A stretch of DNA of 64,000 nucleotides, taken from positions 104,872 through 168,871 of the IMG/VR virus record IMGVR_UViG_3300027969_000043; one strand, written 5' to 3'. This stretch comes from a virus. The position numbers were made by a program, and so were the translations under genes. A model generated the notes under the pieces. That model was not told where the DNA came from and did not search any database. It worked only from the letters and a program-made list of their open reading frames with translations. Shown piece by piece: positions 50,487-63,258 of the stretch; the first letter of the stretch is position 1; every line of letters begins with the position of its first letter.

Positions 50487-50550
50487 GATATAATTTTTGT
50501 GTAAATATACGCACTTTCTTTATAAAATGCAAATATTTATAATAAAAACT

Positions 50551-51405
50551 GTGATATTTTATAAAAACATATTATTAGAAGCTGACGACGTTATTAAACG
50601 CCCAATATTTCATTTTACGGAATTAACAGGTATGTATGAAACGGCTATGAAAGGGTTGGATACAGAACTAAACATTCCAAAGGATGTGTTTAAAAGTTTC
50701 CAAATAAAAGATGAACTATACCCAAAAATGTGGGCAAATGAACAACTTAAACCAGAAATTAGAAAACAATTACTCAAAATAGCTGTAGATTTTTTTACAA
50801 AATTAGAATTACCAGATGAAATAAAACTAAAAGATGTCTTGTTGGTCGGCAGCCTAGCTAATTATAATTGGTCCGAATACTCAGATGTTGATATGCATCT
50901 TGTTGTTGATTTCTCACAATTTAAAGAAGATGAAGAATTTATAAAAAAATTCTTTGACGCACAAAAAAATCTTTATAATATAAAACACGACATCAAAATC
51001 GCTGGCCATGACGTAGAAGTCTACGTACAAGACAAAAACGACAAGGTACACGCTGGCGGCATATACTCATTGCCTAAAGATAATTGGGTACGTATGCCTA
51101 TTAAAAATAGATTTACAGTTGATAGAAAAAATGTTAAACTAAAGGTAGATAAGTTCTTTGATAAAATCAAAAGCATTGAAAACACTTACAAAAAAGAAAA
51201 TTATAAAGACGTAATCACTAAAATAGACGCACTAAAAGACTCGATAAAAAAAATGAGACAGGCTGGATTAGAAAAAGGTGGGGAGTACTCAATAGAAAAT
51301 ATTGTCTTTAAAGTGCTAAGAAGAACCGATTTTATGGAACTTCTAGATACATATAAAAATAAATCTTACGATAAAATGGTAAGTGTAAACGAAGAACAAC
51401 CATGA
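50551..51405 (+). CDS. Pol-beta superfamily nucleotidyltransferase
   Basis: VGSLANYNWSEYSDVDMH (GS..DxD) plus VEVYVQ; late motif just upstream of GTG 50551. Confidence 0.75.
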   Translation: MIFYKNILLEADDVIKRPIFHFTELTGMYETAMKGLDTELNIPKDVFKSFQIKDELYPKMWANEQLKPEIRKQLLKIAVDFFTKLELPDEIKLKDVLLVGSLANYNWSEYSDVDMHLVVDFSQFKEDEEFIKKFFDAQKNLYNIKHDIKIAGHDVEVYVQDKNDKVHAGGIYSLPKDNWVRMPIKNRFTVDRKNVKLKVDKFFDKIKSIENTYKKENYKDVITKIDALKDSIKKMRQAGLEKGGEYSIENIVFKVLRRTDFMELLDTYKNKSYDKMVSVNEEQP

Positions 51406-52424
51406 AAAATCTTATTTTAGAAAAATTACATATATTGCTTGAAGATAAGGGCTATAGGATTGCACCCCAAGACTACGGTGCGGAATTTAGACAAACTGGC
51501 TCAGGTAAGTCTATGACTGGTATTCCAAACAAAAATGTTATCTCTGACGAAAAACTTAATCAAGTAATGGCTCAATTAGCCCTAGCAAAAGAAATATCTC
51601 TAAAATATAAAAGAGCTTGGGATAAAGGTGAAGAAGGCATTTTCGTAAATTGGATGGGTAGAAAAATGCTTATGAGAATTCCTAAAGAACTTAGAACAGC
51701 TACAGACCCTAACGGAAGACCAGTAGACTATTCTAACTACTTTAATATCGCAACAATTGGTGATGGCGGATTCCAATACAAATTATACCCAAACGGAAAT
51801 ATACTAGGTGGTGTTGTACAATCTAGACCAGATATGGCCGATAGACCAAATTTAACTGGCGCCGTAGATGCTGGATATGACAAAACATTTGACGATAGAA
51901 TCAAATACTTTTTTGTTAAAGCTGGTATCATGGGCAAATATAAAGAAGAAGCTGGCAGATTCGCTAGCGTATTGGACACACCTGCCATAGACGCATCTGT
52001 TAAAGTACGTGTAATATTCCATGACGAAATACTAGACTTTCTTACCAAAGATAAAGGTGCAGCACAATATACCGCAGATAAAAAAGGTGCCGAAATAGCA
52101 AACAAAATGGAATTCGAAAAGAAATTAGAAAAGATTAGAAAAGACGCTGAAATCGCAATCGGTAAACCAGTTTATGGTAGCAAAACTTGGATGGACTTTA
52201 AAGATAAGCTTAAAATCATGTTTGATAACCCAGAAGAACAAAAGGCTATGGATATCAACCAAATGACCAAAGATTTTATTAAACAATATCAAGAAACCAA
52301 TACCGTTCTATATAAAGGTAAACAACAAATAACCATGGACCCAGACGAAGAAGCAGAATGGGAAAAAGAACAAAAAGAAAAATTAGCTAGAATAACAGCT
52401 GCTAAAGCTAGAATGAAAAAATAA
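51402..52424 (+). CDS. Hypothetical protein with LxE tag
   Basis: MKNLILEKLHILLE. Confidence 0.65.
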   Translation: MKNLILEKLHILLEDKGYRIAPQDYGAEFRQTGSGKSMTGIPNKNVISDEKLNQVMAQLALAKEISLKYKRAWDKGEEGIFVNWMGRKMLMRIPKELRTATDPNGRPVDYSNYFNIATIGDGGFQYKLYPNGNILGGVVQSRPDMADRPNLTGAVDAGYDKTFDDRIKYFFVKAGIMGKYKEEAGRFASVLDTPAIDASVKVRVIFHDEILDFLTKDKGAAQYTADKKGAEIANKMEFEKKLEKIRKDAEIAIGKPVYGSKTWMDFKDKLKIMFDNPEEQKAMDINQMTKDFIKQYQETNTVLYKGKQQITMDPDEEAEWEKEQKEKLARITAAKARMKK

Positions 52425-52428
52425 ACAT

Positions 52429-53121
52429 ATGAAAAAGAAACTATTAAAACAAAAAGAAAGGGCTATCATCGAAAGCTTTGCTAAGAATTTTAATAAAATT
52501 AAAAGACTTGACGAAAATGAAATTAGTGAAGAACCATTAAACGCCACCAATCATTTACAGGTGGGCGATAGATTAGAAAAAATAAATACATCAACACCAG
52601 ACACTTTAACTATTGTAAAAATAGATGGTAATAAACTTTTTATAAAATCAGATGCGGCCAACCACGAATTTCAATGGACTCTAGATAGCGTCGATGATGA
52701 AATTAAAAGAGGTAAATTAAAATGGTTTCCAAAAAATGAATCACTAGATGAAATCAACCTTAAAAAAAGTTTGGCAACCCTAGGGTTAGCAGCAACCATG
52801 ATGGGTGCACCTAAAGACGCTGCAGCTCAAATGCCACAACAACCACAAGGTATAGAAAAATCGGTTGCTAGTGCTCAAGCTTTGGGCTTGCCAGAAGACA
52901 ATCGCAAAGCGGGTAAAGTAGTTATTGATTCTTACACAAGAAATCCTTTTACTGCCGATATGTGGAGCAAAAAAAGCCGTGAAAATCTAAGGTTTTTTAA
53001 AACACTTAAAAAACTTGTTGATTATTATATGGGCGGTGGACAAGTAGACGATTCTGATATTGAAGAATTAGGCGCAATGGTAAAACAATCACCAGTTGCT
53101 ATGGATTTCTTACAAAGATAA
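52429..53121 (+). CDS. Hypothetical protein with LxE sites
   Basis: AIIES, LDENE, ESLDE. Confidence 0.6.
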   Translation: MKKKLLKQKERAIIESFAKNFNKIKRLDENEISEEPLNATNHLQVGDRLEKINTSTPDTLTIVKIDGNKLFIKSDAANHEFQWTLDSVDDEIKRGKLKWFPKNESLDEINLKKSLATLGLAATMMGAPKDAAAQMPQQPQGIEKSVASAQALGLPEDNRKAGKVVIDSYTRNPFTADMWSKKSRENLRFFKTLKKLVDYYMGGGQVDDSDIEELGAMVKQSPVAMDFLQR

Positions 53122-53124
53122 TAA

Positions 53125-53147
53125 AAAAGGGGCCTAAAGCCCCTTTC
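53125..53147. terminator. Bidirectional terminator
   Basis: AAAGGGGC-CTAAA-GCCCCTTT between convergent genes. Confidence 0.7.
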
Positions 53148-53152
53148 TTATT

Positions 53153-54493
53153 TTAAAATGGTAATATATTATTCTCGGTAAAATCATCGACGTCCATTAA
53201 ATTTAATCTATCCGCCATTGTAATTTCTCGTATCTCAAACTCTTGGACATTGTTCTCAAAATTAACATCGTACATCATAACCTTTGGCTTATTCTGAATC
53301 AACAATTGCATATCCCCGTCACACTTATGAGCATTGGCCAAAGCCTTGTTAAATGCCAATATCTTTTCTTGAACCTCAATCTGTAATTCAACAGGTGTAT
53401 TACAATTATACTTGCCCCTGAATTGACCATTTTCCAAATATTTGTTTTGAGTACTTACCGTCCTAAAATTATCACCAATACCATATGATGATAATTGACG
53501 ATAGTTTAATTCTAATGTATAACCGTTAATGTGATATATCCCAGCACCACCGTTGTCAATTTTATTGATGTAAGTGGCAACACAATGCTTTTGTGTCATA
53601 CCCTCATATAGAACCTCTCTATTGGTTGTCAATAACTTATACCCAGTCACCTCAGCAAACTTACGATATATCTTGGCAACATTTAATTCACGATGCTCCT
53701 CAAATTCTAATACCGTGTTGGTAATCTCTTTGGACCAATCATTATGCATTTGAACCAATCGCTTAACACTCCAAGAACAATTAACCTTCATATCTAGTGT
53801 TCTGGCCATCTTACACGTATCAACAAACATATGATGTGACATCAATTCTGGCTTGAGGCTCTCGATGTTTGTCAAAACCTGTTTCATCTCCTTCCAAATC
53901 TTAAATGTATCTGTGGCTTGGTATTCTTTAAAATGAGCAATTAAAACCTTGATGACTGGAGCTGGCACCTTGAACTTAAATTTTAAAGCGTCGGTTTGAT
54001 TAAAAAGCTTATTTCTAACAATCGTGTTAAACGCCATGCCTTGTAAAGCTGGTGTCTCAGATATAAATCTTATCCAAGAAAACTTCTTCATAAAGGCCTT
54101 CATTATTGGATGCGTATCGATGCTGTCCCAACTAGCAATATTGCCAACATAAGCACGCAACCCAGCATATGTTAATTGAGAGAATTTACCGTGGCCACGC
54201 TTGCTAGAATACCAAAACTTACCCCCCTTATAAATGATGCTCTCCATTTTCTTTTTTCGGATATACATCTTGTTCGTAATGCTAATACCAACGGTCTCAT
54301 GAAACGTACAAATCTCAAAATCACCATTTTCTTGTGTAAACTTAACAACTCGTGTGATGTAATAACTACCTCGATTGTTGAAATACAAAATCCTAGCCTT
54401 GTACTTGTCTTTCGCGTAAACTTCAAATAGTTTGTCAACCAACGAAGATTTGGACTCCTGTATCAAGGTCCACTCTGGTTTATTTTTTTCCAT
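53153..54493 (-). CDS. PcfJ-like domain protein
   Basis: EGMTQKHCVATY, YTLEL, QFRGKYN; host-type promoter 54515-54545. Confidence 0.75.
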   Translation of the reverse strand: MEKNKPEWTLIQESKSSLVDKLFEVYAKDKYKARILYFNNRGSYYITRVVKFTQENGDFEICTFHETVGISITNKMYIRKKKMESIIYKGGKFWYSSKRGHGKFSQLTYAGLRAYVGNIASWDSIDTHPIMKAFMKKFSWIRFISETPALQGMAFNTIVRNKLFNQTDALKFKFKVPAPVIKVLIAHFKEYQATDTFKIWKEMKQVLTNIESLKPELMSHHMFVDTCKMARTLDMKVNCSWSVKRLVQMHNDWSKEITNTVLEFEEHRELNVAKIYRKFAEVTGYKLLTTNREVLYEGMTQKHCVATYINKIDNGGAGIYHINGYTLELNYRQLSSYGIGDNFRTVSTQNKYLENGQFRGKYNCNTPVELQIEVQEKILAFNKALANAHKCDGDMQLLIQNKPKVMMYDVNFENNVQEFEIREITMADRLNLMDVDDFTENNILPF

Positions 54494-54546
54494 ATGTAAA
54501 TTGATTTATTTTGGCAAATATACCAAAAAAAATCAAATCACCAAAA

Positions 54547-55026
54547 TTATTTTTTAAGATTTGCATAATATACTATGTAACTCTTTAAACACTTAGATTT
54601 AAAATCTATCCACGTATCCATATTTATCTTAATCCCCAGCCGATTACCCAATTTCAATCCCTCATCCCAAGCAGCAAATTCTTCCTCTAGGCTCGCAACA
54701 ACATAAGAATCCCTACGCATATATCTTTTATCATTGGTTGTTAAATTAACCTCTTCAGCATACGCCGAAGTTGGAAACCGCTTGGTAAACTTCTTCCAAT
54801 TCTTTCTAATTTCGTGATGACCCAACTCATGTAACATCAAATAGGTTTTTATCTCTACACCATATTTACCCTCGATATATATTGATTTTGGCTCATTTAA
54901 GGTTTGTAGGTTCCATTTTATCATGGATACACCCTTGTGATTAAGACTTATGTTAGCATAACCCTCATTAACAGCATATTCAGTTAAATGCCCAATTGCC
55001 CTCTTGTAACTATATCTACCTGCCAA
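54547..55026 (-). CDS. HExxH zincin-like protein
   Basis: LHELGHH...EEFAAWDEG. Confidence 0.7.
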   Translation of the reverse strand: MAGRYSYKRAIGHLTEYAVNEGYANISLNHKGVSMIKWNLQTLNEPKSIYIEGKYGVEIKTYLMLHELGHHEIRKNWKKFTKRFPTSAYAEEVNLTTNDKRYMRRDSYVVASLEEEFAAWDEGLKLGNRLGIKINMDTWIDFKSKCLKSYIVYYANLKK

Positions 55027-55132
55027 AACCTTTTTTTTATAAATATCCAGTATATCTATATTAACATGTGAAGGTCAAACAAGCTCTGCAATTTACACTT
55101 CCAAAAGCAGGTACGGCGACATCGCCAGCTAC

Positions 55133-55735
55133 CTAGATGGAGCCAGGACCGACGTAATTAAATCTAAACTCTGGGTTGACCCAAACATTTCCACCACCAG
55201 TTATCTTGGCTGTTCTATCTATTATCAGCTGTCTAACAGCTACCGCATCTGGACTAAATGCACTGCCATCAGATGGTCTTAAATATTTCTTGGCCTCCTC
55301 TTTAGGGAATTCAACAAACTTTCCACCATCCATTACAGCAAATGAATATTGAGACCCCGTAGGATATATAGGCAAATACAAACCACTCTTGCCAGTCTCT
55401 AACATATCAAAACCCTCTAATCTTTCATATGTGCCACGGCGTTGACCAGGCTCCGACTCAATACCCTTGCGCTCCTGAGCCCTGCGATACGTATCTAACC
55501 ATGGAAACATAAACATTGTATGCTTATATAATTTACCATACATAGGATTGGGCATCTTGCCCTCTGGGGTAACAAGGTTCTTATTCATGTTGCTATCCAT
55601 GCTAGCAACATAATACGCTGTACCAGTTGTCATCTTGCCAAATCCCTGAGCCAAAAACTCAAAAAGGTCTGTATAACTACCTTCGTTTAAAATAGCCTCA
55701 GAAATTAAATCATTTAAAATTTTTTGTATTTTCAT
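55133..55735 (-). CDS. Hypothetical protein with LxE tag
   Basis: MKIQKILNDLISEAILNE; late motif 55749-56. Confidence 0.7.
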   Translation of the reverse strand: MKIQKILNDLISEAILNEGSYTDLFEFLAQGFGKMTTGTAYYVASMDSNMNKNLVTPEGKMPNPMYGKLYKHTMFMFPWLDTYRRAQERKGIESEPGQRRGTYERLEGFDMLETGKSGLYLPIYPTGSQYSFAVMDGGKFVEFPKEEAKKYLRPSDGSAFSPDAVAVRQLIIDRTAKITGGGNVWVNPEFRFNYVGPGSI

Positions 55736-55807
55736 AACTTTTTTTTATATAAATATACGGAAAAATCCCCCAGAAAAAATTTTTTAAAAGGGGGGTACCA
55801 CACCTTT

Positions 55808-56560
55808 TTATTTAATCTTTATATGTTCAACAACCTTGATATTATCCGTATTAAATATTATGTATTCATAATCCTGATAGTCAAACCCATCATATCCACA
55901 CTTTTTAAAAAATAACGACATGTCTTTTTCGTACTCCGCAGTTTTGTAATTAAACGCAAATATAAGAAAATCATTAATGCTCTTATCTGTGTTTTTTTTC
56001 AAATCATATAATATCTCGGTGTTTTTATCACCACCCTTTTGGTTGCCTAAAATCTCTTTGACATTAGAAAGAACATCCTGTATTTCTTTATACTCCGCAT
56101 TATTTTTAACACGCATTAACACATCTTCCAGCTTATTGACCAAAAATTTTAAATCATCTAAATCATTGATATCGTAATCCCTTAGATTTTCGTATTTAGG
56201 ATTTGTGTTAATTTCATTCCTAATCTCACTAGTATACTTTAATTTTAATTCAATACTTCTAATAAAATCAGAACTTATCTTTTCATCCAAAGATAATAAC
56301 TTTAAATTTGATTTATCAACTATTGTCATATATGCGCCATAATCCGATGCCTTAAATGGCGTAGAAGCAAAATATATTCCCCACCCATGTATACCCCTAG
56401 AACCACCCTTGATATAATCAGTATGAAATTTGTACCTAAAATCATCACCACAATGATACATGATATCTTGCTTTGAATACTTTCTAGCAATATCTTGAGT
56501 TATATTACTCACCATTTCATTCAAATACCTTCGTAAACTATTTTTTATAATATTTTTCAT
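55808..56560 (-). CDS. ADP-ribosyltransferase-fold protein with LxE tag
   Basis: MYHCG...F...HGWGIYFAST..KA..YG...GYDGF...EYIIFN. Confidence 0.6.
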   Translation of the reverse strand: MKNIIKNSLRRYLNEMVSNITQDIARKYSKQDIMYHCGDDFRYKFHTDYIKGGSRGIHGWGIYFASTPFKASDYGAYMTIVDKSNLKLLSLDEKISSDFIRSIELKLKYTSEIRNEINTNPKYENLRDYDINDLDDLKFLVNKLEDVLMRVKNNAEYKEIQDVLSNVKEILGNQKGGDKNTEILYDLKKNTDKSINDFLIFAFNYKTAEYEKDMSLFFKKCGYDGFDYQDYEYIIFNTDNIKVVEHIKIK

Positions 56561-56675
56561 ACCCTATAAATATCACGAAAAATTTCCCAGAAAAAAATTT
56601 TTAAAAAAGGACCCCCTCTTATATTTTAAGTCGAAAATTTCCCAGAAAAAAATTTTTTAAAAAGGGGTACCCCTC

Positions 56676-57380
56676 TTATTTTATCTTTTTACCATCAACA
56701 AATAATTTATTCAACATATCATCACTTATAAGATTAAGCTTAATATTACTACCCAAAATCTTTTGTACAGGAAAATTTCTTAATAACACATTGCTTGATA
56801 ACCAAAAACCACCAGAACCATTAAAAGCATTGGAAATAACCCTTTTTTTATCTTTATACGTGTTCTTATTTATAACAAGTATATAATTTGACCCCCCATC
56901 CTCAAACGTAAAAAATACCAATTCTTTACCCTTGACATGCGAAGATATATCAGGATAATCATCTAACTCTTCACTTACCGTAATATTAAAACCTAATCCC
57001 ATCCCGTTAATCCTATTCATCTCTTTTAAAAATGGTTCGTCATGCTCATGCTCAATACCCTGTTGAGATAAATAAACATGTATCATCTCATGCGCTAACG
57101 TATTCTTAAATTGACTATATGTTAAATCGTAAAACCTAGACATCCTTAAACCACGTATAATTTCTTTACCCGATTCATCTTTCGCATAATATACTGTACC
57201 AATAAGATTTTTATCCATACCCCACCTTATTGGTATTGGCGCTATCTCACCCCCAAATAACAACCCATTTAATCTATTAAATTCTGACGTTAAATTAATA
57301 TCATTAAAATCAATAACATCTTTATCATTAATCGTTTCTAATATCATACGCCTAAATAACTCCTGTATTAACTTTCTCAT
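56676..57380 (-). CDS. SprT-like metalloprotease (paralogue of domain in 39771..41213)
   Basis: FNRLNGLLFGG...LAHEMIHV...HDEPFLKEMNRIN; start MRKLIQELFRRMILE follows late motif 57387-94. Confidence 0.8.
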   Translation of the reverse strand: MRKLIQELFRRMILETINDKDVIDFNDINLTSEFNRLNGLLFGGEIAPIPIRWGMDKNLIGTVYYAKDESGKEIIRGLRMSRFYDLTYSQFKNTLAHEMIHVYLSQQGIEHEHDEPFLKEMNRINGMGLGFNITVSEELDDYPDISSHVKGKELVFFTFEDGGSNYILVINKNTYKDKKRVISNAFNGSGGFWLSSNVLLRNFPVQKILGSNIKLNLISDDMLNKLFVDGKKIK

Positions 57381-57496
57381 ATAAAGATAAATATCACGAA
57401 AAATTCCCAGAAAAAAATTTTTTAAAAAGGGGGTACCCCTATATGACCTTAAAAAAATTCCCAGAAAATTTTTGCGTGAAGGGTCACCCCCTATGT

Positions 57497-57586
57497 GGGG
57501 TGGCATACGGGGGGGTATGTAAGGGGGGTAACGGGGGGAGGGGGTACGGGGGGAGGGGTACCCCTTATATATGGGGGAGGGGTACG
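57497..57586 (+). repeat. G-run tract (nine runs of G4-G7; three GGGGGAGGGGTAC-type units)
   Basis: Directly visible in an otherwise AT-rich sequence. Confidence 0.9.
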
Positions 57587-58261: not shown

Positions 58262-58489
58262 TTATTTTTTATCATTGTAAATTATAAAAATTGTTGATGT
58301 AATAAATAAAACTAATGAAGTAACCCAACCCCAACACAAAAACCAACCTACGTGCCCTTTATCCATTGCGTGCGCGTATTCGTACATACTGCTTTCACTT
58401 GTCCCAGGTTCAGCACCCAAAATAAATAACGTACATAAACCTAAAACGATAAGGGAAATTTCTTGAGCATAGAAAATAAAATTTTTCAT
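58262..58489 (-). CDS. Small two-TM membrane protein (paralogue of 60271..60507)
   Basis: LGAEPGTSESSMYEY loop between hydrophobic helices. Confidence 0.75.
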   Translation of the reverse strand: MKNFIFYAQEISLIVLGLCTLFILGAEPGTSESSMYEYAHAMDKGHVGWFLCWGWVTSLVLFITSTIFIIYNDKK

Positions 58490-58649
58490 AATTTGAATAG
58501 TTTAATTGTTAAAAGATGATGCAATTTACAAAATAATTTTGATATAGCAAATTTATTTTTGAATTATTTTGATATTTTTTTTATTGATATATGTTGCTAA
58601 AATGTTTAGCAATTTGCTAAATTATTTAGTATGCTAATATTTTTAGCAT

Positions 58650-58701
58650 TATAGGGTGCGTTGGAGTATACTTCCCGATTTGTAGTCGTCTGTGCCTTTG
58701 C
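58650..58701 (-). ncRNA. Candidate small RNA, copy U1
   Basis: Promoter 58706-58737; core CGGGAAGTATACTCCAA at 58661-58677; no ORF. Confidence 0.55.
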
Positions 58702-58823
58702 ATAGCAAAGGTAAGGAAAGCAATTGATATAAACAAATTTATTTTGAATTATTTTTAAATTATTTTAAATAAAAAAAATCAGGATATAGAAATATCCCGA
58801 TTTATCCTTATACAATATAAACC

Positions 58824-58958
58824 CTAATTAAAACGATTGTTGCGTCGTGTCATTTTGTCCCACGACTGATTGCCGTGACAACCATATCCAGCACGACAAG
58901 ATGAACCAAAGATAGCGATTGAACCAAGCAATACCAAAGCAAATAATAATTTTTTCAT
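58824..58958 (-). CDS. 44-aa lipoprotein-like peptide (not in ORF track)
   Basis: MKKLLFALVLLGSIAIFGSSCRAGYGCHGNQSWDKMTRRNNRFN; own promoter and terminator. Confidence 0.7.
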   Translation of the reverse strand: MKKLLFALVLLGSIAIFGSSCRAGYGCHGNQSWDKMTRRNNRFN

Positions 58959-59076
58959 TTTTAAAAGTTTAATTGTTAATTGATAATGCAAATATAGGAC
59001 AATAAATTCAAACTACCAAATTTATTTTTAAAAAGATTTATTTGTTTATTTGAAATTAATTTTGTATTATTGCTGA

Positions 59077-59259
59077 ATGAAAAAATTATTATTACTTATT
59101 GCGATTGCTACCTTATCGGGTTGCTATGAATATCGTAAATTGCCCAATGTTAAACGTGTTAATAAGGGTGATGTAAGAAAAGCAATGAAACATAGCACTT
59201 CAAATTATGAAATGCCAAGACAAAGCACTTATAACGTTTCTTATCATTATAACCATTAA
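59077..59259 (+). CDS. Small lipoprotein
   Basis: MKKLLLLIAIATLSGC lipobox. Confidence 0.7.
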   Translation: MKKLLLLIAIATLSGCYEYRKLPNVKRVNKGDVRKAMKHSTSNYEMPRQSTYNVSYHYNH

Positions 59260-59270
59260 ACCAAACTAAA

Positions 59271-59459
59271 ATGAAAATCAAAACAAAATTAAGCCCAGAA
59301 AATGAAATGCTATCTTTGTATTTATCAATTATTGTTAGCCTTATATTTTTCGCCTTGTGGGTGTTTACAGACATCAACCCAACAAAGTTATTTTTTAACT
59401 ACATCGTGTTTTATTGTGTTGTTGTGCTGATTGGTTTCTTTTATCCTTTCAAAAAATAA
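59271..59459 (+). CDS. Small two-TM membrane protein
   Basis: Two hydrophobic segments. Confidence 0.6.
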   Translation: MKIKTKLSPENEMLSLYLSIIVSLIFFALWVFTDINPTKLFFNYIVFYCVVVLIGFFYPFKK

Positions 59460-59517
59460 TTTAAAAAAAGATTAAAAAAGATTTGGTAGAATGAATAATT
59501 CTACCTATCTTTGATTT

Positions 59518-59579
59518 ATCAAAGCGATAAGACGACGACAAGTCGGTAGGTATACTCCACGCTACGTGCTATTTTTTTT
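59518..59579 (+). ncRNA. Candidate small RNA, copy U2
   Basis: Promoter 59482-59513; CGGTAGGTATACTCCACGCTACGTG then T8. Confidence 0.6.
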
Positions 59580-59635
59580 ATCCAATATATAAAAAAATTG
59601 TCAGATATTACTCTGACAATCATATTATAGTTTAT

Positions 59636-60043
59636 TTAACTATAATAAATTTCCTCCAAATCCTTCAAAACAGCTTTGCCCTTATCCGTCCAAGATATAC
59701 CTTTGAGCCATACAAAATGCTCAAGGTTTTGAGGGTTGCGCCAATCCATTCCTTCGCCCTCAAATAGCCATTTTAAAGCCGTTTTATAGTCAGATGCGCC
59801 CAATTGGATAGTACGTCCAATTAACAAATCAAAAGCCTTCAAATCGGCTTGTAAACGCAATTCCTCCTCGATGGCATTCTCACGGCAAACCTCGGAAAAA
59901 CGAGCGAAATCGGCTTGTAACTGCTCGTCAGACATAGCCGAATAATCCAAGCCACGAGGGCGAAAGCCGTATGCGTCCTTGTGAAAATCGCTATAAACTT
60001 GTAGCATTTCGTTTCTCTCGGCAAGTGATAAGGTAGTAGTCAT
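59636..60043 (-). CDS. Early hypothetical protein
   Basis: YSDFHKDAYGFRPR motif; own promoter. Confidence 0.75.
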   Translation of the reverse strand: MTTTLSLAERNEMLQVYSDFHKDAYGFRPRGLDYSAMSDEQLQADFARFSEVCRENAIEEELRLQADLKAFDLLIGRTIQLGASDYKTALKWLFEGEGMDWRNPQNLEHFVWLKGISWTDKGKAVLKDLEEIYYS

Positions 60044-60152
60044 AATTTGAATGTTTAAATGTTAAAAGATAATGCAATTTAGCAAAATAAATTCAAAGCA
60101 CCAAATTTATTTTCATATAATTTTTTTTATAATATATTGGTTTATATCGCAT

Positions 60153-60216
60153 AAAAAAAATATCGTGTAGGTTGGAGTATACTTCCCGATAGTGTATATC
60201 GTATTGCAACTTTGCT
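60153..60216 (-). ncRNA. Candidate small RNA, copy U3
   Basis: Promoter 60221-60252; CGATA-TACAC-TATCG hairpin; core 60172-60188; T8. Confidence 0.6.
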
Positions 60217-60270
60217 AAAGCAAAGATAAGGTAGTTTTTTCAAACTACCAAATCTTTTGCAAAGTATTTT

Positions 60271-60507
60271 TTATATTTTTTTGTATATACGGATTGCAGT
60301 AGTAACTACAAACGTAACAAATGATAAACCTAATGCCAAAAGCAAATACCAACCAAAATTACCTTTATCGCAAAAATGCTCGTATTCATACATAGAACTC
60401 TCACTTGTCCCAGGCTCAGCGCCTAATACACATAATAGGCAAAAAGCAAAAATACACATTGAAAAAAATTGTGCGTTTTCAATAAATTCATTAAAAAACT
60501 TTTTCAT
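60271..60507 (-). CDS. Small two-TM membrane protein (paralogue of 58262..58489)
   Basis: LGAEPGTSESSMYEY; ATG 60507 follows promoter and shared leader. Confidence 0.75.
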   Translation of the reverse strand: MKKFFNEFIENAQFFSMCIFAFCLLCVLGAEPGTSESSMYEYEHFCDKGNFGWYLLLALGLSFVTFVVTTAIRIYKKI

Positions 60508-60645
60508 AATAGATTGTTTAAATGTTAAAAGATAGTGCAATTTACTAAAATAAATTCAAACTACCAAATTTATTTTTAAAAAAATAAATAAAAAATAATT
60601 GCCAAAATATTTGTTTTATAATTTAAAAACCCTTACCTTTGCTAA

Positions 60646-60706
60646 AGCAAAGGCAAAGACGTTTAAACAACGGGAAGTATACTCCACGCTACGTGTTATT
60701 TTTTTT
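60646..60706 (+). ncRNA. Candidate small RNA, copy U4
   Basis: Promoter 60610-60641; core 60671-60686; CACG-CTA-CGTG; T8. Confidence 0.6.
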
Positions 60707-60874
60707 ATATATGAAAAAAAAATTTTGCAAAGGTACAACATTATTTCCATACTACCAAATAAAGTTATCCACATAGGCAAAAAATATGTTAATAACTTTT
60801 CTAAAATAAATTTGGTAGGTTAAAAAAATAGTCCTATTTTTACATCAGTTCTTTCACATTTAAACCAATCTATT

Positions 60875-61183
60875 ATGACACAATTTGAAACGGCTATTGC
60901 CCAAGCCGAAATTGGCGAATTGCAAACTCCAAGTGTTAGTTATGGTAAAACTGCCATAGATTACTTTTGGTATCAAGTTTCAGTACATCACTTTAACCTT
61001 AAAATTATGGCAAGTGGTATGAAATGTCGGGGTATTAAATTTACCGATATTAAAAAATACTACGGCTTGAAAGGTAATTGCGCTAAAAAATGTCTGGCAC
61101 AATTTGAAAATGTCGTTACTCGTTACCGATTAAAAATGATTAACGACCATCTCAACACAATGGAAACTGAATACTCGTTTTAA
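60875..61183 (+). CDS. Early hypothetical protein
   Basis: Own promoter/leader; terminator GCACCC-TTCG-GGGTGT+T tract at ~61200-61223. Confidence 0.7.
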   Translation: MTQFETAIAQAEIGELQTPSVSYGKTAIDYFWYQVSVHHFNLKIMASGMKCRGIKFTDIKKYYGLKGNCAKKCLAQFENVVTRYRLKMINDHLNTMETEYSF

Positions 61184-61315
61184 ACTCCAATCCAACAAAG
61201 CACCCTTCGGGGTGTTTTTTTTTGCCCCATGTACACAAAAGTGTGCATTTAAAATAATTTAAAAATAATTCAAAATAAATTTGGTAGTATCAAATTAATG
61301 TACTACATTTGTATT

Positions 61316-61379
61316 GTCAATGTGAATGACAGACGATTAAAACTCGGGAGGTATACTCCAAGCTACGTCATATTTTTTT
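61316..61379 (+). ncRNA. Candidate small RNA, copy U5
   Basis: Promoter 61280-61311; CGGGAGGTATACTCCAAGCTACGT then T7. Confidence 0.6.
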
Positions 61380-61673
61380 AGCGCTCCAAAAATCTTTTCA
61401 TTCTTTCATATTCATAATTTTCATAATATAATATTTTTTTAATGAATTTAAATAATGCTTTCATAGTATATGGATTTAATTATATATATTCAAATAATAT
61501 ACCAAACCAAAATTATTTTTCATATCCTATTTGTCAGCTCAAAACTGACAATGCAGATATAAAACATAACTCATTTTAAGCCGATTTAACGGCATATATT
61601 TATCAGATAAGGTAATCATAAGGGGCATAAAAAAAGGGGCTAAATTAGCCCCTTATTCATTCGTATAGCAATT

Positions 61674-62540
61674 TTAATTTGCCGTTGCCATATCGTATAT
61701 GGTATCAAATATTTTGCCGTCTAGTGTTTTTTGCACATCAAACGATTTCGCAAATTTGGTATGCAATATCTCGTTGAAGGCATTGTAACCTAACCACATA
61801 TTAGGCGAAGTATTAAGGTATCTAGATTCAGCCAATATCGTATCTGCAACTATTTCAGCATTTAAGGACGGCTCGGGATTTTTGTCCGATTTTTCATACT
61901 TAAATATAGCAGTTTCCTTGCATACGTCCTTTACGAATTTTTGCACATCAGAAACGATTGCACCACTCAAAAACTCTGCCTTCGGTTTCAACGTGTAATA
62001 CTCGTTATTCAAAAAATTGCTAACAAGGGTTTCAATTTCGGGCAATACAAACTCAACGATACTACCTTTATGCTTTACGTTAAAAGACATTTTGGTTTCA
62101 GCAACGTGCAAACCATTAGTACAAACTTGGCGAAAATATCCAAAACTGCCCGACGTTTTACAACTGCCGTCATACGAATTAACGAAACGTAACATTGGCT
62201 TGATAATATCTTTGCCATTAGCCACAACGATATTATATCTATCATCGTTTAAGATATAATCAACTGCGAAACTACGATTATCACGATTAATACTACGTGT
62301 GTCGTATTGCACATCAGCATTAATCAAATTTTCTTCCACAACGGCAAAAAACTGCTCGTTGGGTAAATGTCCGTAATTGTCCGAAAATACGCCTACCAAC
62401 GTGCCGTTGGAATAGATTGCTTTTTCTAATCCCTTACGTGTAGGAGTGCCTAAAATTTCGGCTAAATTACGCACTTCGCTATCAACGAATACGTTGTCAT
62501 TCTGCATTGTTTGCCCCTTAAAATTGATACGTGTAGTCAT
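61674..62540 (-). CDS. DUF932/DUF945-family protein
   Basis: FVNSYDGS...GYFRQVCTNG...KHKG; W..YNAFNE. Confidence 0.8.
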   Translation of the reverse strand: MTTRINFKGQTMQNDNVFVDSEVRNLAEILGTPTRKGLEKAIYSNGTLVGVFSDNYGHLPNEQFFAVVEENLINADVQYDTRSINRDNRSFAVDYILNDDRYNIVVANGKDIIKPMLRFVNSYDGSCKTSGSFGYFRQVCTNGLHVAETKMSFNVKHKGSIVEFVLPEIETLVSNFLNNEYYTLKPKAEFLSGAIVSDVQKFVKDVCKETAIFKYEKSDKNPEPSLNAEIVADTILAESRYLNTSPNMWLGYNAFNEILHTKFAKSFDVQKTLDGKIFDTIYDMATAN

Positions 62541-62695
62541 AACTGGGTTGCATTTTAGCCACTCGCATTGTGGTTAGGTTGAATTGTGAGATACAAATAT
62601 CGCATTAGTTTTTCAAACCACCAAATTTATTTTGAATTATTTTTAAAATAGTTATACACATATTATTTTTTATAATGTGAATAACTTTGCACCCT

Positions 62696-62764
62696 AAAAA
62701 AAATAGCGTGTAGGTTGGAGTATACTTCCCGCCATTGTTAGTGCCGTATGTCATTCAAATTGAC
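62696..62764 (-). ncRNA. Candidate small RNA, copy U6
   Basis: Promoter 62769-62800; core 62715-62731; T8. Confidence 0.6.
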
Positions 62765-62854
62765 AATACAAATATAGGATAATAAATTGAAACTACCAAA
62801 TTTATTTTAAAAAAAAATGCCCTACATTTGTAAGGCATTTAATTCGTGTGCTGA

Positions 62855-63013
62855 TTAACACTGATAAGTTATCGGTATTATCTCAAACGCTTCAATAAAA
62901 CCAGTTTCTGCTTGTAACACTTCAACAAGTGCAAGAGCATCAACTCTGTGTTCAAATGCTTTGTGCATAATACCCGCACCATTTTCAAATACGAGCCAAA
63001 TTGTTTTTTCCAT
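62855..63013 (-). CDS. 52-aa early protein (not in ORF track)
   Basis: MEKTIWLVFENGAGIMHKAFEHR...; own promoter and leader. Confidence 0.65.
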   Translation of the reverse strand: MEKTIWLVFENGAGIMHKAFEHRVDALALVEVLQAETGFIEAFEIIPITYQC

Positions 63014-63258
63014 AATAGATTGTTTTAATTGTGAGATACAAATATAGGATTAATAATTCAAACTACCAAATATTTTTTGAAGTATTTTTAAAATATTTTT
63101 TTGGTGGTCTGGAATTAATGTTGTATGTTTGCTTTGTTTAAATGAATAGGTTAAAAGATAATCCCTGATGTGTCTACATCGGGGATACTTTTTATTTTGT
63201 ATAAACTAAAAAACCCCACACTTTTGGTGTAGGGAATTTATTCACAATTAAACTAACT

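Follow-up and report, generated by a model that had tools for sequence, protein, structure and literature searches.

The terminal 64 kb of the 168,871-b IMG/VR virus record IMGVR_UViG_3300027969_000043 (hereafter the window, 64,000 nucleotides (nt), whose own numbering is used throughout) carries six short promoter-driven units, U1 to U6, which belong to a widespread family of structured elements that is real and non-random. The units are best explained as genes for independently transcribed small RNAs that would act in trans and combine a constant recognition platform with an exchangeable hairpin, a reading that rests on sequence analysis and to which we give a probability of about 0.6. An original prediction, made from the letters alone, had pointed to the six copies as a candidate new family of phage small RNAs, with possible roles as decoys of host defence, guides or replication primers. 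The record has a completeness of 48% (CheckV). The window encodes a major head protein (T4-like), a portal protein and a large terminase, and its nearest isolates by terminase, which include Flavobacterium phage vB_FspM_immuto and a Microcystis phage, are about 29% identical.

The six copies were recovered in the predicted places and on the predicted strands by a search of the window for the core GGRAGKTATACTCCA, with up to two mismatches allowed (Table 1). Comparison with 100 shuffles gave an expectation of 0.19 copies, none of the shuffles reached six, and the whole record contains no copies beyond these. Each unit is directly preceded, in matching orientation, by the sequence TTTG-N17-21-TAnnTTTG, as had been claimed. 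The TTTG and TAnnTTTG elements form the -33/-7 promoter type of Bacteroidota, and all six predicted start sites have the -33 TTTG, the -7 TAnnTTTG and the spacer of about 19-21 nt of Bacteroidota housekeeping-sigma promoters. There are 20 such matches in the window compared with 5.9 expected, most of them in the final stretch; the record as a whole has 34, with 14 inside its last 9 kb, where very short transcription units form a mosaic. When the six units are aligned, the order is promoter, ACG...CGG hairpin with changing sequence, constant block and T7-8 (in five of the six), which agrees with the layout originally described (ACG, variable hairpin, CGG.A.GTATACTCCA, ..CTAC.., T7-8), including the deviating 3' end of U1.

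Several of the promoter spacers contain inverted repeats. The GGTAG...CTACC repeats of the U2 and U3 spacers (59485-59505 and 60230-60249) are common to related contigs, and a similar repeat, GTAGTA...TACTAC, is seen by eye in the U5 spacer (61284-61307). Such repeats may be operators. The ortholog of U6 in contig L131 is identical in its RNA part and has a different, U2-type promoter spacer, suggesting promoter exchange.

Table 1. Positions of the six units in the window; promoters, RNA ends and helices (P1, P2) are predictions
Unit	Feature	Position	Strand	Details
U1	promoter	58706-58737	-	-33 TTTG, N20, -7 TACCTTTG; pattern match
U1	predicted RNA	58631-58702	-	P1 58693-58702; P2 58676-58688 (CGA/UCG, loop CUACAAA); core 58662-58676
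U1	3' end	58631-58649	-	tail AACGCAC; no U-tract; hairpin AUGCUAA..UUAGCAU; L143 ortholog ends likewise
U1	model match	58642-58710	-	46.8 bits
U2	promoter	59482-59513	+	spacer is inverted repeat GGTAG..CTACC
U2	predicted RNA	59516-59579	+	P1 59516-59530 (UUAUC/GAUAA); P2 59533-59545 (CGAC/GUCG, loop GACAA)
U2	core / U-tract	59545-59559 / 59572-59579	+	GGUAGG variant
U2	model match	59514-59579	+	55.7 bits
U3	promoter	60221-60252	-	spacer is inverted repeat GGTAG..CTACC
U3	predicted RNA	60153-60217	-	P1 60207-60217; P2 60187-60201 (CGAUA/UAUCG, loop UACAC)
U3	core / U-tract	60173-60187 / 60153-60160	-	
U3	model match	60153-60222	-	53 bits
U4	promoter	60610-60641	+	pattern match
U4	predicted RNA	60645-60706	+	weak P1 60647-60654; P2 60660-60672 (CGUU/AACG, loop UAAAC)
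U4	core / U-tract	60672-60686 / 60699-60706	+	
U4	model match	60637-60706	+	60.1 bits
U5	promoter	61280-61311	+	pattern match
U5	predicted RNA	61315-61379	+	P1 61315-61331 (UGUCA/UGACA); P2 61334-61346 (CGA/UCG, loop UUAAAAC)
U5	core / U-tract	61346-61360 / 61373-61379	+	GGGAGG
U5	model match	61312-61380	+	63.5 bits
U6	promoter	62769-62800	-	pattern match
U6	predicted RNA	62696-62765	-	P1 62749-62765; P2 62730-62746 (CGGCA/UGGCG, one G-G, loop CUAACAA)
U6	core / U-tract	62716-62730 / 62696-62703	-	
U6	model match	62696-62768	-	56 bits

Relatives of the units were found in viral contigs and metagenomes. An exact 16-mer scan of IMG/VR viral contigs yielded one true relative (L007, with four copies), the rest being mostly chance matches in coding DNA, and a degenerate pattern added nine more virus records. 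A covariance model, built from 22 units, detects one to seven usually clustered copies in each of ten other IMG/VR records. Its matches number 62 in the IMG/VR-derived loci plus the window and at least 114 in metagenome loci, the scan of metagenome contigs having provided at least 116 stretches, mostly from lake, estuary and marine samples. After dereplication, at least 115 distinct units are present in the 10 other IMG/VR records and at least about 80 metagenome contigs; exact GTATACTCC is found in 110 of 115 distinct units among the matches listed.

The family had not been recognised in the original prediction, and Rfam 15 likewise contains no match to it: nothing was found in the 64-kb window at the gathering score, and no match at E up to 10 in the region 58500-62900 corresponds to a unit. 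ARAGORN found no tRNA or tmRNA gene in the window or the whole record. Comparison of two units by blastn with 50,697 isolate phage records gave no true match, and searches with the covariance model found no unit in Flavobacterium phage 6H, which encodes a DUF932 homolog of 54% identity, or in vB_FspM_immuto. The family is thus absent from Rfam 15 and from the isolate phages searched. A catalogue of 10,006 unnamed candidate structured RNAs from IMG/VR (Fremin et al. 2023, PMC10690425) likewise covers covarying intergenic motifs of uncultured phages from the same data source. Its abstract and section headings describe nothing like these units, and the family may stand undescribed among the 10,006 candidates.

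The most conserved part of each unit is a block of about 21 nt, GG(G/U/A)A(G/A)GUAUACUCC followed by R-M-C-C-U-A-C, in which 12 core positions are invariant in 105 distinct sequences. Secondary copies found by the model alone display just GGUAGG, GGAAGG, GGUAAG and GGAAAG, together with five single-base variants. Two hairpins that exclude each other are possible within the block, GGAG/CUCC and GGGAGGU/ACCU-A-CC, both made of conserved letters only. The first of these, proposed originally as the fold of the core, received no covariation support, both of its sides being invariant. There is also no covariation signal between the two variable positions of the block and the tail, or between the tail and the linker that precedes P2.

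Directly against this block stands the variable hairpin P2, which closes with C-G and G-C and has stems of 3-8 bp and loops of 3-19 nt. Its stems range over CGTT/AACG, CGATACT/GGTATCG, CAATATT/AATATTG, CTAC/GTAG and CGATGTCA/TGGCATCG. The claim that this hairpin is maintained by compensatory change holds both in the six copies and across the 92 distinct rows of an alignment of 114 matches. In this alignment 89.7% of P2 cells are paired, whereas column shuffles reach 77.9% and sliding of the partner leaves no more than 43%; 41 cells are changed on both sides, compared with 12.9 in shuffles. The alignment was fitted to the model, which favours structure somewhat; the ends of P2 are nevertheless fixed by its invariant flanks. 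Covariation in a larger alignment had been named beforehand as a point on which the prediction would stand or fall, and in P2 it is strong.

Unlike the block, P2 behaves as an exchangeable module. There are 70 distinct P2 sequences among 85 units, and the six copies in the window have six different ones. The same P2, including its loop, also recurs with differing P1 and tails, for example CGTTTAAACAACG in U4 and three other contigs, and CGACTACAAATCG in U1 and two others. Conversely, 84 flanking nt are 99% identical between contigs L125 and L092, which have unrelated P2 sequences (CGTT-TAAAC-AACG versus CGA-TTCGC-TCG), and U6 and L079 have a common tail and downstream sequence, with P2 replaced. 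U1 and its L143 ortholog have flanks of 94% identity and P2 sequences of 56%, with a compensatory A-U to U-A change (CGA/TCG to CGT/ACG). The P2 loops are rich in A (44%) and C (22%), and the U-turn motif YUNR occurs in 19 of 52 loops compared with 11.3 expected, a modest enrichment equalled or exceeded by 8 of 1000 shuffles.

The arrangement of the units relative to their promoters is equally regular, with the -7 box lying 28-45 nt upstream of the block in 100 of 110 units. A second hairpin, P1, starts 3-4 nt after the -7 box. Bacteroidota start sites lie about 3-4 nt after the -7 box, which would place a stem-loop at the 5' end of the RNA. The arms of P1 change together (GUUAUC/GAUAAC, GUUCA/UGAAC, GUCA/UGAC, UAUC/GAUA, UGCUA/UAGCA, ACAAAG/CUUUGU), and P1 and P2 are separated by a linker of 2-4 nt whose last base is A. 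RNAalifold applied to MAFFT alignments found P2 only and not P1, and because differing hairpin lengths shift the alignment columns, P1 was assessed by anchored scripts. In segment folding of 76 units, the P1 and P2 regions had mean z of -2.6 and -2.8, respectively (Wilcoxon p below 1e-10). The compensatory helices that generally characterise structured RNAs are seen in the P2 covariation and in the folding z-scores of P1 and P2. At the other end, a run of at least five T is present in 70 of 110 units, 61 of these runs starting exactly 13 or 14 nt after CUCC.

Variation at the 3' end is seen in several members. Downstream of U1 (58560-58650, minus strand), the U-tract is replaced by a series of TGCTAA/TTAGCA palindromes, the first hairpin of which is kept in the L143 ortholog. 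Members L081, L101, L114, L115, L139 and L094 lack the U-tract and have a conserved AU-rich inverted repeat, YTTATTTAGAATNATTATAAAT, after the tail, which may be an alternative 3' end.

The surroundings of the units are consistent with their independence from adjacent genes. The nearest downstream gene is tandem in 54 cases and convergent in 40, the nearest upstream gene is divergent in 51 and tandem in 40, and, in the cases inspected, a separate promoter precedes downstream genes on the same strand. The most frequent neighbours are common early genes, encoding DUF932, GP88, DUF6011, HNH and a protein of about 98 amino acids (aa).

In the proposed model, the six units would be paralogous genes for a structured non-coding RNA of about 60-75 nt, encoded by uncultured phages using Bacteroidota-type promoters. 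Each would be its own transcription unit, with the -33/-7 promoter placing the start at the foot of P1. After P1 would follow the short linker ending in A, and then P2 abutting the block of about 21 nt, GG(N)A(R)GUAUACUCC-RMCCUAC, with the U-tract at a fixed distance marking the 3' end in most members. The near-invariant block would be the constant part, recognised by a conserved partner that is most likely a protein, and P2, which differs among the copies of one genome, would give each copy its identity. Such RNAs would act in trans, early in infection.

Several observations weigh against this model. Folded as whole molecules, the six window units have z of -0.9 to +1.0, no better than shuffles, and the G-U and A-C counts in P2 (24 versus 15) give no clear preference for folding of either strand. 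Part of the invariance of the block is built in, as both the seed pattern and the covariance model contain the core. About 40 of 110 members have no run of at least five T. No canonical terminator hairpin precedes the U-tract at the units, though the same scan does report hairpins with T-runs at other places in the region, several shortly after the ends of genes; the units lack the G+C-rich stem 0-2 nt before the U-tract that marks intrinsic terminators, the nearest possible stem ending 4-5 nt before the T-run and being weak in the window copies. A search for conserved neighbours found no universally linked protein gene.

The fixed spacing of 13-14 nt between CUCC and the U-tract in 61 units, together with the lack of a canonical hairpin, would also suit a cis-acting transcription element, in which block and U-tract form a hairpin-independent stop or pause, on the model of the sequence-specific, hairpin-independent class II terminators of T7 RNA polymerase, or a put- or nut-like modifier of the polymerase, the transcript itself being functionless. 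As in HK022 put and lambda nut, two stem-loops lie directly behind a phage promoter, and some members that lack the U-tract run into an AU-rich hairpin or towards a gene. However, put and nut RNAs act in cis on long operons, whereas the units have a predicted length of about 65 nt, a conserved single-stranded block and no set orientation relative to their neighbours, from which they stand apart. An operon that could be modified is missing downstream, the numbers of tandem and convergent neighbours being nearly equal and downstream genes, where inspected, having separate promoters. The block is found only behind promoter, P1 and P2 (100 of 110 units), never at gene ends like a general terminator, and a stop signal has no need of P2 alleles conserved across different units. 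This explanation is regarded as unlikely. Improbable, too, is a function at the level of DNA, with the block or the GTATAC palindrome serving as an operator, roadblock, origin or recombination site and the hairpins being incidental or formed in single-stranded DNA. AGTATACT is an 8-bp palindrome in four of the six window copies, another palindrome (CTTTGC-N3/4-GCAAAG) lies over the -7 box of U1, U3 and U4, the G-U and A-C counts are compatible with either strand folding, and the units cluster near contig ends. An orientation-independent DNA site, which the original prediction had named as a way for it to fail, is nevertheless contradicted by conservation that is asymmetric about the palindrome, by GTGTAC and GTAGAC variants that break it, and by the fixed orientation to the promoter, which is on the same side in 100 of 110 units. 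Furthermore, the number of GTATAC sites in the genome (53) is close to expectation (57), with neither enrichment nor avoidance, and the pairing of P1 and P2 is kept while their sequence changes, which a double-stranded protein site does not need. The same low likelihood is given to a catalytic or ligand-binding RNA, in which about 21 near-invariant nt, flanked by varying helices, would be the core of a small ribozyme or aptamer of a new type. Variable helices with many invariant unpaired nucleotides do resemble the cores of ribozymes and riboswitches, and the block has its two mutually exclusive hairpins, but neither of these folds nor a contact with the linker is backed by covariation, no Rfam ribozyme or riboswitch match, even a weak one, overlaps a unit, and the free-standing units regulate no adjacent gene.

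Of the roles suggested originally, that of replication primers would make the units transcription-activated origins like T4 oriF and oriG, at which DNA synthesis is primed by a short, persistent transcript from a promoter. In favour of this, a span of 5.5 kb holds several short units with promoters, in both orientations and each with A/T-rich DNA after it. An origin needs neither a 21-nt invariant block nor P2 alleles common to different phages, and this role is considered quite improbable. A guide role is not supported, the variable parts being self-paired. Decoys of one specific defence system, imitating a host RNA that is either a CRISPR repeat or a type III antitoxin, had been proposed by analogy to RNA anti-CRISPRs (Racrs) and pseudo-ToxI. 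Consistent with this, the units contain hairpins, are encoded by phages behind promoters and stand among early genes of types that also occur on conjugative elements (DUF932, PcfJ-like, SprT-like). Racrs are small, phage-encoded, non-coding, solitary CRISPR-repeat units (PMC10651486), and the units resemble them in each of these respects except the repeat itself. Racrs copy the host CRISPR repeat, whereas the 21-nt core-plus-tail pattern of the units, GGGARGTATACTCCNNNCTAC, occurs only four times in 185,579 species genomes, as chance hits in unrelated metagenome-assembled genomes, none of them in an array or passing the covariance model. The absence of the block from host genomes removes sequence-level mimicry of a CRISPR repeat or other host RNA. 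No Rfam CRISPR-DR match overlaps a unit, and it is the hairpin that varies, although a repeat mimic would have to preserve it. In ToxI, repeats of about 36 nt form a tandem array adjoining a toxin gene. ToxI and pseudo-ToxI share with the units a repeated small RNA of phage or host and a suggested role in counter-defence, but the units lie scattered over both strands at distances of 0.5-1.4 kb, with their own promoters, and none of the neighbours tested (among them DUF932, a protein of unknown function and small membrane proteins) belongs to a ToxN-like family. Imitation of either kind of host RNA is thus very improbable. Least credible is a micro-ORF (open reading frame) in which the block, read as G-(K/R)-Y-T-P-x-Y, would encode a conserved peptide. 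Of the three variable positions in the block, two would be synonymous third positions (GGN, CCR), and the third, AAG/AGG, a conservative Lys/Arg change at the second codon position. This reading was rejected, as other synonymous sites are invariant (TAT, ACT and the G of ARG) and the stretch from the start site to the block lacks an in-frame ATG, GTG or TTG in 72 of 100 units. Any start codon would fall inside the hairpins, and P2 lengths differ by non-multiples of three, in line with the original statement that the units contain no credible ORF.

Antisense RNAs are also among the known systems closest to the units. CopA, RNA I and Sok are antisense RNAs of about 60-70 nt with U-turn recognition loops and a strong constitutive promoter. 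The units are similar in size, promoter, 5' hairpin and U-tract end, and have A/C-rich P2 loops with a modest enrichment of YUNR. By contrast, no overlapping or complementary target was identified for the units, which moreover have a 21-nt invariant block and many paralogs per genome.

The final stretch of the record contains genes for DUF932, PcfJ-like, SprT-like, nucleotidyltransferase and small membrane proteins. The region directly upstream of the unit cluster (50497-57506) has genes of types known from conjugative elements, namely PcfJ-like (53153-54493) and SprT-like (56676-57506), along with a poly(A)-polymerase-like nucleotidyltransferase (50497-51405). Among the units lie two genes (58262-58489 and 60271-60507, both on the minus strand) that are paralogs and encode small hydrophobic proteins, 75 and 78 aa long; they have relatives in other unit-carrying contigs (cluster 44). 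A single-sequence fold of the 102-aa neighbour protein (60875-61183) had a pLDDT of 48.8 and was left out of consideration. Another small-RNA candidate, unrelated to the units, is located at 63100-63205 on the plus strand, with a promoter of the same type (63100-63131), an ORF-less stretch of about 70 nt and, at its 3' end, a canonical terminator hairpin (63161-63186) and T-run. A minus-strand promoter (60759-60728) points at the 3' end of U4, and a 14-bp minus-strand hairpin with a T-run (60660-60629) sits on the promoter and P1 of U4; together these could yield an RNA antisense to U4. In about seven of 11 virus records (G000-G010, the records behind L007 and L022-L033), the units lie within about 12 kb of the contig end. 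Either the assemblies are broken by the repeated promoters and units, or the region is a genome terminus.

To our knowledge, small RNAs of Bacteroidota-infecting phages are almost unstudied. Bacteroidota lack Hfq, and have unusual promoters and translation signals. The units form a multi-copy family that is widespread in lakes, estuaries and the sea, and their short block, which lies beside a cassette-like hairpin, ranks among the best conserved in phage RNAs. The combination of a constant block with an exchanged hairpin suggests a shared partner and diversified specificities. The covariance model is usable for annotating such genes in viromes, and may help to find a culturable phage that carries them. 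More tentatively, and as a possibility we hold to be doubtful, the units may constitute a modular RNA repertoire, in which the constant 3' platform would recruit one conserved host or phage factor, and P2, with its U-turn-like loop, would set the target. Each of the six to seven or more copies per genome would have its own version of P2, swapped between phages. If this is true, Bacteroidota phages would possess an RNA-based system of multiple specificities, without a described counterpart, that serves host takeover or counter-defence.

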